DNA from: Waterburya sp.
GTDB taxonomy: Bacteria > Cyanobacteriota > Cyanobacteriia > Cyanobacteriales > Xenococcaceae
DNA length: 64,000 nt
Assembly: GCA_965217895.1 (NCBI GenBank)
Contig: CBDCJV010000002.1
Span: 800,001-864,000, forward strand
Direction: 5' to 3'
Shown here: piece after piece, positions 4,110 through 43,339 of the stretch
Position numbering within the stretch: position 1 is the first letter of the stretch
Layout of the letters: the number at the start of each line of letters is the position of its first letter
Made by a program: the position numbers and the translations under genes
The notes under the pieces: model-generated
What the model was told of the DNA's origin: nothing
Database searches by the model: none
The model's input: only the letters and a program-made list of their open reading frames with translations

Positions 4110-5285
4110 ATGAAAATTTTTATCAGTACAGGAGAGGTTTCTGGAGATTTACAGGGTTCAATGTTGATTAAGTCCTTGTATAAAATAGCTGCTCAAAAGA
4201 ATATCAATCTCGAAATTGCTGGATTGGGTGGCGATCGCATGGAGGCAACAGGAGCAGATATTATTGCCAATACCGCAGCTATTGGCTCAATGGGATTTGT
4301 AGAAGGATTACCGTTTGTCTTGCCAACGATAAAGATTCAAAGCCTGACTAAAAAATATATTCAGACAAATACCCCCAATATTTTAGTTTTAATTGATTAT
4401 CCTACTCCTAATTTAGCTCTGGCTAACTATGTAAAAAAATATTTTCCCAAAATACCAGTAGTATATTATATTGCCCCCCAAGATTGGGCAGTACCAATGT
4501 TAAATAATGCCTCCAAAATTGCCCAGGTTGTAGATCGCTTACTGGCAATTTTTCCTGCCGAAGCTAAGTATTTTAGCGATAAAGATATTAACGTTACCTG
4601 GGTGGGGCATCCTTTGCTCGATCGCTTGGTAACTGCACCAGATAGAAATCAAGCCAGATTAAATTTAGGCATTGAGCCAAAGGAAGAGATTATCACTCTT
4701 TTGCCTGCTTCTCGCCAGCAGGAAATCAAATATTTGCTGCCTGTGATCGCTCAGGCTGCACAGCAAATTCAGCAGCAAAAACCTAATCTTAAATTTTTGA
4801 TTCCTGTATCTTTGCCTAGCTACACAGACGCAATCACCTCAGCAGTTAAGCAACACAATCTATCTGCAAAAATATTAACAGGTGACAAAACTTTAGATGC
4901 GATCGCTGCTGCGGATCTGGCTATTGCCAAATCAGGTACGGTTAACCTAGAAATTGCCTTGCTCAATATTCCCCAGGTGGTTATCTATCGCGTTAATCCT
5001 CTGACTGCCTGGATAGCTCGTAAGATATTGCACTTTTCTATTCCTTTGATGTCACCACCTAACCTGCTCCTCAACCAGAAAATAGTCCCTGAATTACAGC
5101 AAGAAGAAGTAACCGCTGATAATATTGCCACTGAAGCGATGCAGCTTTTAACAAATGATCGAACTCGACAAGAAATAATAGCAGGGTATCAACAGATGCG
5201 ATCGCTTTTAGGCACCGTCGGAGTTTGCGATCGCACTGCGATTGAAATCCTTAACTTAACTAACAAGATTCCCATCAATACTTAG
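4110..5285 (+). CDS. lpxB: Lipid-A-disaccharide synthase
   Basis: Motifs STGEVSGDLQG, VGHPLLD, LLPASRQQE and KSGTVNLE. Confidence 0.95.
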   Translation: MKIFISTGEVSGDLQGSMLIKSLYKIAAQKNINLEIAGLGGDRMEATGADIIANTAAIGSMGFVEGLPFVLPTIKIQSLTKKYIQTNTPNILVLIDYPTPNLALANYVKKYFPKIPVVYYIAPQDWAVPMLNNASKIAQVVDRLLAIFPAEAKYFSDKDINVTWVGHPLLDRLVTAPDRNQARLNLGIEPKEEIITLLPASRQQEIKYLLPVIAQAAQQIQQQKPNLKFLIPVSLPSYTDAITSAVKQHNLSAKILTGDKTLDAIAAADLAIAKSGTVNLEIALLNIPQVVIYRVNPLTAWIARKILHFSIPLMSPPNLLLNQKIVPELQQEEVTADNIATEAMQLLTNDRTRQEIIAGYQQMRSLLGTVGVCDRTAIEILNLTNKIPINT

Positions 5286-38924: not shown

Positions 38925-39527
38925 TTAGCCAACTGAAGAGAAATAAACTTTAGATTTTACTGGATCGGGATTCATGGTTTGATCTCCTTCTTGCCATCCC
39001 GCAGGACAAACTTCATTGGGATTATTCTGTACGTGTTGAATCGCTTTTAAGGTACGTAAAGTTTCATCGACGCTACGACCAAAGGAAAGGTTGTTAATCG
39101 TTGCGTGTTGAATTATGCCCTCTTTATCAATAATAAATAATCCTCTTAAAGCTACTCCAGCTTCAGGATCTAAAACATTATAGGCATTGCTAATTTCTTT
39201 TTTAATATCAGAAACCAAAGGATAAGCAATATCACCAATACCGCCTTCTTTGCGCTCAGTTTGCATCCAGGCTAGATGAGCAAATTCACTATCTACGGAT
39301 ACGCCCAAAATTTCTGTATTTAAAGACTCAAACTCTCCATGGCGATCGCTGAAGGCGATAATTTCAGTAGGGCAAACAAAAGTAAAATCTAAAGGATAGA
39401 AAAACAAGACAGTATACTGACCACGATAATCAGAAAGCTTTACCGTCTTAAATTCTTGATCGAATACAGCCGTAGCCATAAATTCAGGTGCTTCTTGCCC
39501 TACTCTTAAACATCCTTCACTGTTCAT
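38925..39527 (-). CDS. 2-Cys peroxiredoxin (AhpC/TSA)
   Basis: Motifs [14 protein letters not shown] and EVCPAGW. Confidence 0.97.
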
Positions 39528-40631
39528 AATTAACACAATATTTTTTTAGCAATCTGTAAAGCCAACGAGCCGTGTAGCCAGTTGTTTTTCCAATAATCAA
39601 TTTACCAAACTTTCGCTTGACTTGGTTTTTGTTTAGTGAACCAACGCTAACATTATTGTTCCAACTAGCTTTAAACATGGCTTCCATTAACATTAATTGA
39701 TTAGTTAATTCTTGTCCATCGATATAAGGCTTAAGATTAGTAGACACTTAAATGCTGCCATACTCTCAAACTTTTCGATGGGATAAACCTGAGATAGCAG
39801 TAACGCTCTTAATGTCAAATTAAAGTTGAATTGGTCAAAAACCAAGTTGTATTGTTTAAATTGAGAATTGTAAACTAGGATAAACAATTCTTTCTCAATT
39901 GCTAAATGCTGCAAATCAATGTCATCAATAGTTTGCGCTAGCCAGCGGGTAAATTGACTGATAGAAATGCCATAGCTCTTTGCCACACTTTTTTTGTACC
40001 TACTACCCCAATAGTTACTATGGTTTTTTAACTGTCTTTTTCTACCAGCTAGCCAGCACCACAACGCCCGTCTACCATCGCTTAGACGATTTGTGGCAAC
40101 ACCAATAGCTTCTGGAAACTCACGAGCTCACTGTTGTCTTGCACGATTAAGCAACGGGTTTTGAAACCTAGCCAAAGATTTTAACTGCAAAAACAGTTCT
40201 CGCATACGTGCTATTGGCGTAGGATTAAAAGAGATAAAGTAATTTTGTTTGCCATAATAAATATGAGCATAGCAAGCGATCGCCATCGCCTCTGCTAAAT
40301 CGTTTTTATCAGGTAAGTTGTTTTGTCGTCTGTAGCTAACAGCTTGGGTATGTCCTACCCAAAGAACTTCTACCTTTTCTCGTTCGGCAATATGCGCTAC
40401 TAACCATGAGTAGTGCATACCTGTCGGTTCTAATGCAATCGCATCAGGCTTTTGAGCTAATAAGCCAGCTATACCACTGTCGGTGAAATAAAACGTAAAC
40501 TCATCTAGTTTAGGATCTTTACTGCGTTGCTTTGATTCTTTTTTCCAATAAGCTTTTACGTCATTGGGTAAAGTCTCAAGTGACCAACAAACAGCACGAT
40601 CCTTGCAAATATCAATGCCGATAATTTTCAT
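39517..40631 (-). pseudogene. IS110-family transposase/recombinase, long form, disrupted
   Basis: N-terminal DEDD RuvC-like motifs MKIIGID, ALEPTGMHY and DKNDLAEA. An in-frame TGA at 40128-40130 continues in frame (AREFPEA...). A frame change follows AAFKC (about 39745), and no SG catalytic-serine motif is visible. Confidence 0.8.
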
Positions 40632-40644
40632 ATTTAATTGTCGT

Positions 40645-40964
40645 GGTGCTACATAACACAGGGATTTATCGCGTCTTACCAATGTCAATAAGGTCAAGAA
40701 TCTCCCTAGATCACTCGTTGCGATCAATTCACTGTCAAACCTAGACATGGAGTAGCCAGAAAAAAGTAGCTCAGTCAGGAAGGATGAAAACCTTACGCTC
40801 ACTTCTGTAGGAAACTTACACTACTTTTTTTAAGGCGGCTTTTTGAATGATTAAAAACGCGCCTTGCTACTAACTGAGATTACTCCCAGGCGAAAAGAAT
40901 CGCGAACACTTCCCGCGACATCAAATATCTTGATGTTTTGATCGCCCGTCCAAGGCAAATCTCA
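40645..40964 (-). ncRNA. Candidate structured RNA (bridge/seekRNA-like) upstream of the IS110 gene
   Basis: Nested helices found by eye: 40964-58/40881-75, 40865-60/40837-32, 40830-21/40769-60, 40756-52/40652-48 and 40707-03/40664-60. Two internal loops with ~10-nt strands. Confidence 0.6.
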
Positions 40965-41159
40965 TCAGGCGGTTATTTTTGTTGTGGCTTTAATACGGGA
41001 GATGATTGATACATCAATATCATTTTCTGTGATGGTTAAAAAGCCTTCATCAAAAGCAATGCAGTAAACCCATTTACCTTGATATGAATAAGTTTTGCTG
41101 ACAACCTTTCCTACAGTTCCAGGAATGCGATCGCCAATCTCATATTTCGGTTTGTTCAT
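40965..41159 (-). CDS. Small hypothetical protein, possible SH3/KOW-like beta fold
   Basis: Pattern PKYEIGDR..GTVGKV....W.YCI; 5 bp downstream of the preceding ORF's stop. Confidence 0.6.
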   Translation of the reverse strand: MNKPKYEIGDRIPGTVGKVVSKTYSYQGKWVYCIAFDEGFLTITENDIDVSIISRIKATTKITA

Positions 41160-41326
41160 ATCCGTTACTGTTGTCGAAGCTTGCTTAACATAAATTTGAT
41201 TTCAGCTAAACGCGATCGCTTTTGTTCGATTGTCAAAAATTGAAGTTCTAGTAGAGCATCAATATATGCCTCCTGGACTACTTCAGTTGTTTGATACGGA
41301 AGATGTTCAATTACAGTTACCAGTAA

Positions 41327-42450
41327 TACCAATTCTCCATGAAGATGCAATAAATTAATAATGGTGACACGGTGAGGAAAAATGGGAAATAAATTTCAGG
41401 TAGAAGTTAAAGAAAGTAAAGAAGAATTGAGACATCGATTGCATCATTCAGTTACCGCTAGCAGTAGAGAAAGATTACAGATGCTGTATTGGCTAAAACA
41501 AGACGCGATCGCGCTCGTGAAAAGAACTATCTCAAAAATTGAGTAGGGATGAATCCACCGTATATCGATGGCTTAAAAGATATCGCCAAGGAGGTCTTTC
41601 AAATCTACTGTCTGTAAAAACTCCTCCAGGCAAGAAAAGTAAAATTGACGCTCAAGAAATGAATCAGCTCAAAGAACGTTTAAGTCAACCTCAAGGATTC
41701 AAAAGTTATGGAGAAATTCAAGAGTGGCTCAATCAGGAACTTGGTATAGATCTTGCTTACAAAAGCGTACATAAAATTGTTCGCTATAAACTAAAAGCCA
41801 AACCGAAAGTACCACGTCCACAAAGTCCCCAAGCCAAACCTCAAGTTCAAGATGCCTTTAAAAAAAACTAAAAGACATCATAAAAGTGTTAATTAACTAT
41901 TTGGCTACAGGTCAACCAGTTCGTTACTGGTGTCAGGATGAAAGCCGTTTGGGACTTAAGACATTAGCAGGAAAAATAATTACTTTACAAGGTATCAAAC
42001 CTCAAGGAACTATGGGATGGCAGAGAGACAACTTTTATCTTTATGGGCTAGTCGAACCTTTGAGCGGAGAAAGTTTCTTTTGGGAGTTTTCTCATCTTGA
42101 TAGTCTTTGTTTCCAGCATTTTTTAGATCTGTTTTCTCAAAACTATGCCGATAGCCTAAATTTAATTCAAATGGACAATGGCAGCTTTCATAAATCTCAT
42201 CAATTAAAATGGGCTGATAACATCATTCCAATTTTTCAACCTGCTCATAGTCCTGAACTTAATCCCATCGAACGTTTATGGGAACATATTAAAAGTAAAT
42301 TAGCTTGGGAATACTGCGATAGCTTAACTCAGTTAAGAACAAAATTAAAGCAGGTTCTTGATTCTATTTCCGAAGAAATGATTGCTTCTATTTGCGGATG
42401 GGACTATATTAAATCCGCTTTATTAAGTGCAACTTCATAGAGAATTGGTA
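41327..42450 (+). mobile_element. IS630-family insertion sequence
   Basis: 23-bp TIRs taccaattctccatgaagatgca / tgcaacttcatagagaattggta (2 mismatches), flanked by TAA on both sides. Confidence 0.92.
41382..42440 (+). pseudogene. IS630 transposase (HTH orfA plus DDE orfB) with an extra frameshift near 41515
   Basis: MGNKFQVEVKES... then STVYRWLKRY in another frame; slippery TTTAAAAAAAAC before the orfA stop; motifs QDES, MDNG and SPELNPIERLW. Confidence 0.85.
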
Positions 42451-42525
42451 TAACAAAATATTTTCTTCGTATTCGCTAATTTGAAAGCTGCGATCGCCTA
42501 GTTCATATTTTGGTTTATTCATCTT

Positions 42526-42986
42526 CACCATTATGACATCCAAAGCTGTGATGCAAACACCTATAGCTAAGGGAATGCCGAACAATAGTTCTAAAGCGAT
42601 CGCACTGCAGACTAACTCTGCTGAATCACAAGCGGCGATCGCAATCTCACACAAAATCCACAGGAAAAAGCTGACGCGCGGACTGTAGTTGTCACGACAG
42701 GCTTGTGCCAAATCTCGTCCCGTTGCCACGCCCAGCTTGACACAAAGAGCCTGCAACACGATCGCCATCGGTTAGAGAGTAAGATAACACTCAGCAGCAT
42801 ATAGCCAAATTGAGCGCCGCCAGCTAAGTCAGTTGCCCAGTTGCCAGGATCCATGTAGCCTACCGCAACGAGGTATCCAGGTCCTGCATAAGCCAACATT
42901 TTGCGCCAAAAGCCTTTACCGTTGGGAATAGCAATCGTGCGATGTACTTCTGGCAAACTGGGTTGCTGTTTAGAAACGTCATTCAT
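42526..42986 (-). pseudogene. mntH: Nramp Mn2+ transporter, frameshifted and 3'-truncated
   Basis: [19 protein letters not shown], frameshift near 42770, EIAIAACD; homology ends at ITALDVI. Confidence 0.9.
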
Positions 42987-42990
42987 TTCT

Positions 42991-43009
42991 TTCTCATATT
43001 CTTCTCATA
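42991..43009 (-). promoter_or_regulatory. ManR-type direct-repeat binding site
   Basis: Minus strand TATGAGAAGAATATGAGAA directly upstream of mntH, closely resembling the cyanobacterial ManR box as recalled. Confidence 0.75.
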
Positions 43010-43339
43010 ATTTAATCTAACATACCTGATTGTCTGAAACACTAATTTTCTAAAAGACAATGATTACAAAAAGATTTGATTTACCTTCTTTTAATTAGCG
43101 ATCGCCTTTGAGTTTTGTAAGAATCATGTTTCAGAAGAATAAAAAAAACCAAAAAGAGCAGCTTGCGTATGTCTTTGCTCTGGTAATCTAGACCTGATAG
43201 GGAATGAAAATTGCGATAAATGTTATCATCTTTAAGTTGTAATCAATGCAGAATATAGCTACAAAGTAAGAAGAGCTATTCCGTTGTTCTGGAATTTCAA
43301 TTATCAATACAATAACTACAAGAGTAAAGATCGCATACC

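Follow-up and report, generated by a model that had tools for sequence, protein, structure and literature searches.

In a 64-kb window of Waterburya sp. DNA (the whole stretch analyzed, to which plain coordinates refer), a decayed gene for an IS110-family recombinase, the noncoding RNA upstream of it, and two small open reading frames (ORFs) belong to a much larger phage-like element. Sequence comparisons indicate that this dead copy marks a widespread family, in which a bridge RNA (the guide RNA of the recombinase) fronted by a hammerhead ribozyme defines both the ends of the phage-like elements and their targets. We put at about 85% the probability that the ribozyme-fronted bridge RNA and the IS110 recombinase integrate these elements at sites set by the guides. 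On the minus strand, the region consists of a truncated mntH gene, a 76-amino-acid (aa) ORF split by an IS630 insertion sequence, a 64-aa ORF, 333 noncoding bases (40964-40632), the decayed recombinase gene, and prx. Those homologs that carry a name point toward Pleurocapsa-like cyanobacteria. Below, G000 is the genome from which the window derives and L-numbers denote individual loci.

The recombinase clade is present in 26 of 61 relatives and in 41 of 401 genomes of the phylum, counting G000. Long flanks were collected for 58 clade matches in other genomes, picked by match length and contig room. The set of 59 loci used below leaves out L001, L003, L051, L053, L058, and L059 because the recombinase start or the upstream region is missing or displaced. 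Of the catalytic motifs, the D and the E are present in all 55 full-length proteins, DxxD in 54, and SG in 43. The recombinase of locus C (L005, from G000) matches PF01548 (E = 7e-7) and PF02371 (E = 6e-4, just under the cut-off), while similarity to a solved IS110 enzyme, ISCro4, is faint (E = 0.036). By these sequence features, the clade has both the DEDD residues and the Tnp domains of an IS110-family bridge recombinase.

Locus C closes an 11.5-kb region with a helix-turn-helix (HTH) repressor, a tyrosine recombinase, late genes, and a phage lysozyme. Using profiles built from the loci themselves, we detected at least two markers of this module in 35 of the 38 loci with at least 5 kb upstream; L118 and L120 have none and L110 has one. 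All called elements fall between 8.1 and 17.2 kb. In the intact layout, the left attachment site (attL) is followed by a lysis/structural module, the tyrosine recombinase with core genes, and the HTH repressor. Divergently from these run an early operon of small variable ORFs, the hammerhead, the bridge RNA, the IS110 recombinase, and the right attachment site (attR). The elements do not fit a simple IS110 insertion sequence, with only the recombinase between two short noncoding ends, as many genes separate the recombinase from the left ends 6.8-16 kb upstream.

The RNA upstream of each recombinase has two similar internal loops and covarying stems. We assigned its guides by the IS621 convention, as set out in the accessible text of PMC11208160. 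The right target guide is complementary to host DNA past the right junction, the left donor guide repeats the element end, and the four guide-to-DNA matches surround a 3-nt (G/A)AA core. An attL with a cognate left-guide match was found 6.8-16 kb upstream in 22 of the 32 loci with at least 9 kb of upstream sequence, compared with 158 of 1792 pairings (8.8%) when the RNA was non-cognate. An attR was called in 45 of 57 loci, and right-target matches of at least 8 nt occur in 73% of cognate but 1.1% of non-cognate pairings. The attR lies within 10 nt of the recombinase stop codon in 20 of 35 strict calls, often overlapping or directly following it. The 16 elements with both ends strictly called, a set from which L093 and L098 were left out for a doubtful attR, have 15 distinct targets and a single donor consensus. 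The exact reverse complement of the right donor guide is not found at element ends, which fit it with one bulged or mismatched base. For locus C, an empty-site contig from a public sample joins at the predicted core, in a diverged allele.

Sister pairs, whose recombinases are 83-95% identical, offer an unselected test of the link between guide and target at the sequence level, in that the host flank was located by the donor motif and not by the guide. In these pairs, a right guide that differs tracks the host flank. In L099/L100, L091/L092, L104/L123, L108/L109, and L046/L048, guide and flank have changed in step over 8-9 nt. The exceptions are L126, which matches over 6 nt only, and L102, which has one mismatch and the very same RNA as L101.

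Directly 5′ of the bridge RNA, the loci share the order CCGC-CUGANGA-stem II-CGAAAC-stem III-GUC-GCGG. A lenient pattern for this hammerhead matched 41 of 59 loci (one match, in L054, was spurious and was dropped before pairs of the pseudoknot were counted), whereas controls gave no match on the reverse strand (0 of 59) or within the gene (0 of 58), 1 of 57 upstream, and none in shuffles. Only 20 of 59 loci matched a strict pattern, because stem II has bulges. A covariance model returned 57 matches in 931 kb, and in 55 of the 59 loci a match ends 0-340 nt upstream of where the recombinase begins. The core pattern (CUGANGA, GAAA, UH, three stems, and an open stem I) was passed by 48 of the 56 model matches listed. 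Among the eight failures, L002 fails through its long stem III alone and L054, L093, and L105 through other changes. In the window, L006, L042, and L048, GAAA is changed to AAAA at a CGATCG site. The altered G is a catalytic base of the hammerhead, and CGATCG is methylated in cyanobacteria.

Covariation was extensive. Two-sided changes occur in 18 of the 20 pairs of the stems and pseudoknot, a level reached by none of 500 shuffles and no slid control, although related loci share changes. The pseudoknot has at least 4 pairs in 30 of 38 distinct loci, all 5 of its pairs show two-sided changes, and its mean of 4.6 pairs compares with 3.2 in 2000 permutations, none of which was as high. By core, stems, and pseudoknot, the sequence has the makings of a type I hammerhead. 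Single-sequence folding z-scores of the ribozymes are weak (-0.2 to -1.9), promoter-like sites are not above chance (8 vs. 10.3), and Rfam scores peak at 29.8 bits, where RAGATH-1 has a gathering score of 56.3; in the window, a tRNA was the sole Rfam match at gathering score. Searching 141 genomes with the RNA first yielded 29 matches, 17 of them outside the locus set, and 15 of these 17 have a clade recombinase 138-411 nt downstream. Same-type hammerheads precede other phage- or plasmid-like genes in L147 and L148, with no IS110 recombinase within 1.5 kb. In L110, L113, L117, and L120, for which there is no strong att call, the bridge RNA regions behind the hammerhead have apparently repeated or differently built loops; L120 has two hammerheads.

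We also characterized the genes carried by the elements. Eight elements encode a lysozyme, M15, C39, or Tlde1-like enzyme at the distal end. A further late protein is modeled as a single jelly-roll with a C-terminal helix (mean predicted local distance difference test [pLDDT] score 80.8). It aligned to the turret protein of Sulfolobus turreted icosahedral virus (STIV) with Z 8.0 and a root-mean-square deviation of 2.9 over 85 residues, tied with non-viral folds, and its best Z, 8.5, is at a level that the tool calls common. Together with a collagen repeat, this protein suggests spikes or fibers. The first late gene encodes a conserved protein of 100-130 aa, for example 124 aa at L044:11512-11886 (model pLDDT 95.7). 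The model had no clear structural match (best PDB Z 2.5; none in BFVD at E ≤ 0.001), which shows neither a new fold nor a capsid. This protein is a candidate capsid protein. No match to o221 was found in the ESM Atlas. Scans of IMG/VR with the recombinase alignment, o102, and the 124-aa family, and tblastn of GenBank phages with the recombinase or the jelly-roll protein, gave no relative; both searches were word-limited and do not show absence. An Inoviridae-like filamentous phage, with a Zot/pI ATPase and release without lysis, was considered and rejected, as 20 of 22 elements have no Walker A pattern and eight have lysis enzymes. "Phage-like" is the safe term, and a satellite or an element that forms no particle is possible. 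Another late-gene module (o102, a long protein, the jelly-roll protein, lysozyme, and o133) is present in two copies, at G000:C2:2787-10248 and 3473238-3480699, with no recombinase among its matches. In L057, a TIR-domain gene just inside attL (4308-5114) is possibly defense cargo.

A model for these elements is that the early operon would be made as one transcript, which the ribozyme would cut after GUC to leave the 5′ end of the bridge RNA (plus the recombinase message). The ribozyme may stand in for the circle-junction promoter of IS621-type elements, because the junction here is 8-16 kb away. The recombinase and bridge RNA would join the donor of the circular element to its target in the host, an altered target loop or exchange of the entire module would redirect the element to new sites, and the element would make particles. 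We infer cleavage, recombination, and virions from sequence alone. We lean, by a little, toward the elements being widespread, unclassified small temperate cyanophages with an unrecognized virion architecture, an attachment site that is natively reprogrammed, and a bridge RNA matured by a ribozyme in the early operon.

Several observations weigh against integration by ribozyme-fronted bridge RNAs or against a phage. No attL was found in 10 of the 32 loci with long upstream sequence, non-cognate RNA also yields an attR call in 753 of 3192 pairings (24%), and several attR calls are weak. Since guide matches served to select the attL and attR calls, the lengths of these matches are to some extent built in, and the controls weigh more than the lengths. 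No joint of a circular form (attP) was present in the contigs of one public sample, the loci are kin rather than independent, and every element also has a tyrosine recombinase. By covariance model, 4 of 59 loci (L052, L057, L103, and L124) have no hammerhead; as L057 and L103 nonetheless have both ends, the ribozyme is not universal. Likewise, 2 of the 17 new hammerheads have no recombinase downstream. Lysis enzymes were recognized in only 8 of the 22 elements with an attL (53 of 78 end-proximal ORFs were scanned), and a Walker A pattern was found in just 2 of the 22. No major capsid protein was identified, nor any packaging ATPase or any HK97 capsid, terminase, or portal of tailed phages (Caudoviricetes), with PHROGs and Pfam in the elements scanned, where remote homologs are possible.

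The last of these observations, with jelly-roll matches no better than a common level, would suit RNA-guided integrative elements or satellites that have no particle of their own and whose "structural" genes represent cargo or components with which to hijack a helper. We consider this doubtful, since it sits poorly with the lysis-type enzymes at the distal end of eight elements, the collagen repeat and jelly-roll protein, the HTH repressor opposite the early operon, and the conserved first late gene. It is somewhat less probable still that the hammerhead, though active, serves general processing or decay of early transcripts, a role already proposed for other hammerheads of prophages, with the 5′ end of the bridge RNA made in another way. 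Hammerheads near prophage integrases are already known (PMC3088659, in its accessible text), four loci have none, L120 has two, and two matches precede other genes. However, across families the hammerhead keeps a fixed place ~185-290 nt upstream of the recombinase start and immediately in front of the target loop, and all three matches in G000 are at these recombinases.

Two further explanations are very improbable. If the unit were a compact IS110 element with the small ORFs as dedicated partners of the recombinase, one would point to the loci of the same genus, which usually have a cassette with the KYxIGDR motif as the last ORF before the ribozyme. Such cassettes are absent from loci of other families, their bodies are unrelated, the 76-aa body is unique among 39 genomes, and the element is far larger. 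Slightly less credible again is that the tyrosine recombinase is the integrase, with the IS110 unit an ordinary insertion sequence that targets these prophages. A Phage_integrase domain does occur in most loci, and recombinases only 25-29% identical lie behind copies of the 64-aa ORF with ~90% identical DNA. Yet the right donor arm is at the far end of the whole element, beside host DNA matching the left target guide, empty host sites join exactly at the core, and the stretch just upstream of the RNA did not contain the predicted donor arm.

For the window, the guides assigned by the IS621 convention predict a target at the start of prx. The features of the locus are as follows.

42526-42986, minus strand: 5′ fragment of mntH (Nramp), frameshifted and truncated; Pfam match to Nramp
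41165-42522, minus strand: 76-aa early-gene cassette split by the IS630 element, reconstructed with a 3-nt duplication
41327-42450, plus strand: IS630-family insertion sequence with TAA duplication, 36-nt inverted ends, and DDE_3 and HTH_32 domains
40965-41159, minus strand: 64-aa cassette, final ORF of the early operon, whose stop codon is the UGA of the ribozyme core
40902-40972, minus strand: type I hammerhead, predicted to cut between 40917 and 40916
40632-40916, minus strand: predicted bridge RNA, with left target guide at ~40813-40802 and right target guide at 40786-40779
40735-40728 and 40706-40698, minus strand: left and right donor guides, respectively, of the bridge RNA
39517-40631, minus strand: IS110 (DEDD) recombinase pseudogene; PF01548 E = 0.002, below the curated cut-off
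39516-39527, minus strand: attR, comprising the donor left arm and the GAA core (39518-39516)
38925-39527, minus strand: prx, host peroxiredoxin and target gene, with protein start MNSEG in the window

The initial annotation of this region, made from the sequence alone, described four co-oriented parts once the IS630 element is removed, and all of them (76-aa ORF, 5-bp gap, 64-aa ORF, RNA, and recombinase) are indeed on the minus strand. Removal with a TAA duplication restores the 76-aa ORF (42522-41165), whereas a TA duplication gives 27 aa instead; paired ends of related IS630 copies in G000 are flanked by a 3-nt TNA duplication. The annotation was also right that the copy is decayed. The recombinase has an in-frame stop at 40130-40128 and, compared with its closest relative, L058, a 271-nt deletion near 39750 that removes the serine region. 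With the change of GAAA to AAAA at 40939 and a pseudoknot down to 2 pairs, the window hammerhead is probably inactive. The RNA does not begin after the 64-aa stop codon, as had been proposed; this TGA belongs to the hammerhead core CUGAUGA (40968-40962). A compound element with an internal RNA is borne out, and for the suggested processing of that RNA from a polycistronic transcript the conserved hammerhead supplies a mechanism. The unit itself has to be redrawn. The boundary of the element lies elsewhere than between the RNA and the small ORFs, a position that would have spoken against a compound unit. The true element is 8-17 kb long, and the four parts make up its decayed right end; what the window retains is this one end of a prophage-like element that is dead and split in two.

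At the prx side, attR overlaps the recombinase stop codon and provides prx with a new start codon. Of the prx starts at 30 loci, 26 are native (MTTEG-type) and 4, including the window, are donor-type. The exact 13-nt window target is carried, as an empty site, by 16 of the 26 native alleles. The attL counterpart is at G000:C2:4439467, where the native prx promoter and first codons with the left target are followed by the core and the right donor arm. Beyond it are o133 and lysozyme genes that are 98-100% identical to those of locus C. The halves, in opposite orientation, lie 3.6 Mb from each other; an inversion or other rearrangement would have separated them after integration. At G000:C2:4439467-4439503 (L128), the left ends are nested: 26 nt separate an outer end of the window clade from an inner one of the locus C type, a pattern suggestive of an older element whose integration module was replaced.

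At the mntH side, four relatives match the window up to 42526 and then continue as mntH, and the downstream mntH segment in L131 has no match in G000. The 42526/42525 junction is a deletion join of truncated mntH to the phage remnant, not an element end. No empty mntH-prx locus, with which a comparison was once advised for defining the ends, was seen. Within 42612-43150, mntH has a frameshift near 42770, and the upstream region lacks a stretch found in relatives. Elsewhere in G000:C2, scars of the 3′ end of window-clade recombinases lie near 2507596, 2542282, 3503761, and 3749364. In these scars the donor arm ATG/GTG-AAC/AAT-AGT-GAA serves as the beginning of the host genes that follow it, lysS among them, and this may be why decayed copies keep their right ends. 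A mini-element of ~320 bp at G000:C2:3749055-3749374 (L007) has kept both ends and lost nearly its whole interior.

Two further copies of the 64-aa ORF in G000 each precede another, intact recombinase (~25-29% identical to that of the window). The ORF has 3 close homologs among 5.8 billion proteins, with only leads below 0.9 in the ESM Atlas. Tandem cassettes in these operons begin with MxKPKYxIGDR, a pattern matched in 16 of 59 loci; the match in L109 is spurious and the others are in loci of the same genus or named Pleurocapsa. More than one match occurs in 8 loci, and 19 of 26 pattern matches contain a HIP1 octamer. The bodies of the cassettes range from SH3-like to cysteine-rich, and that of the 76-aa ORF is matched in none of 38 congeners. 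An ORF of at least 40 aa stops on the UGA of the hammerhead core in 15 of 38 distinct loci. The likeness to DUF1392 once noted for one of the small proteins finds no echo in Pfam, up to E = 1, for the 64-aa ORF or for 14 aligned cassettes. Nor do the small proteins look like dedicated partners of the recombinase, given their variable bodies, their restriction to loci of the same genus or named Pleurocapsa, and the unmatched 76-aa body. As cassettes in the locus set are confined to loci of the same genus, we read the small ORFs, from their sequences, as variable, shuffled early phage genes; that shuffling occurs at HIP1 is a guess.

As far as the accessible text of PMC11208160 goes, IS621 and other IS110 elements share with this family a DEDD recombinase, a bridge RNA that precedes the gene and has a target loop and a donor loop, same-sense left guides and complementary right guides, and a core within all four pairings. 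The core is 3-nt (G/A)AA here and CT in IS621. The present elements also differ in their size of 8-17 kb, their phage-like module, the hammerhead in front, and an attR that often overlaps or directly follows the recombinase stop codon. The IS621 bridge RNA promoter forms at the circle junction (PMC11208160), which is not adjacent here since the RNA is 7-16 kb from the left end. In Nf/MDA of Neisseria and phiOH16/Zuza of Thermus, filamentous prophages that likewise have an IS110-family enzyme at one end, the enzyme is thought to integrate and excise the provirus (PMC7058167; PMC11437467). Those are inoviruses, whereas the elements here have lysis enzymes, mostly no Walker A ATPase, and many targets that track guides; the accessible parts of those reports mention no bridge RNA or ribozyme. 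Prophage hammerheads, as described in the available part of PMC3088659, have the same consensus core, a pseudoknot of loop II with a strand beyond stem I, and a place near integration genes, but those here are tied to a guide RNA and one recombinase clade. In the accessible portion of a recent preprint (bioRxiv 10.64898/2026.10.21.760802), bridge RNA clusters and a hammerhead cluster are treated separately, and boundary searches are limited to 1 kb around the gene. We found no paper in the openly accessible literature that joins a hammerhead to a bridge RNA or describes these cyanobacterial elements; supplementary datasets of the preprint and of PMC3088659 may list these RNAs. Judged by these sources, IS110 integration of inoviruses has already been proposed and hammerheads near prophage integrases are on record, and the putative maturation of a bridge RNA by a ribozyme would be the new part.

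If correct, our model joins three separate observations in one mechanism and gives the hammerheads of prophage integration, so far without a function, the job of releasing a guide RNA. That IS110 enzymes in proviruses act as integrators has been an assumption; in this family, both ends and the host site are predicted by the guides. The elements on which bridge RNAs were defined measure 1-2 kb, and this clade would escape 1-kb boundary searches. The elements would constitute a natural RNA-programmed integrase that moves 8-17 kb under a phage genetic switch, and possibly a new group of cyanobacterial viruses. The family offers bridge recombinases with large cargo, a 3-nt core, and many guide-target pairs, with locus C, L044, and L056 as intact cases.

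Lastly, G000 contains short (~100-165 bp) non-autonomous elements that have the same ends as the IS630 element in the window and TNA duplications. They are located at G000:C1:79761-79924 and at C2:626730, 728554, 1567833, 1716380, 2466888, and 2811609.

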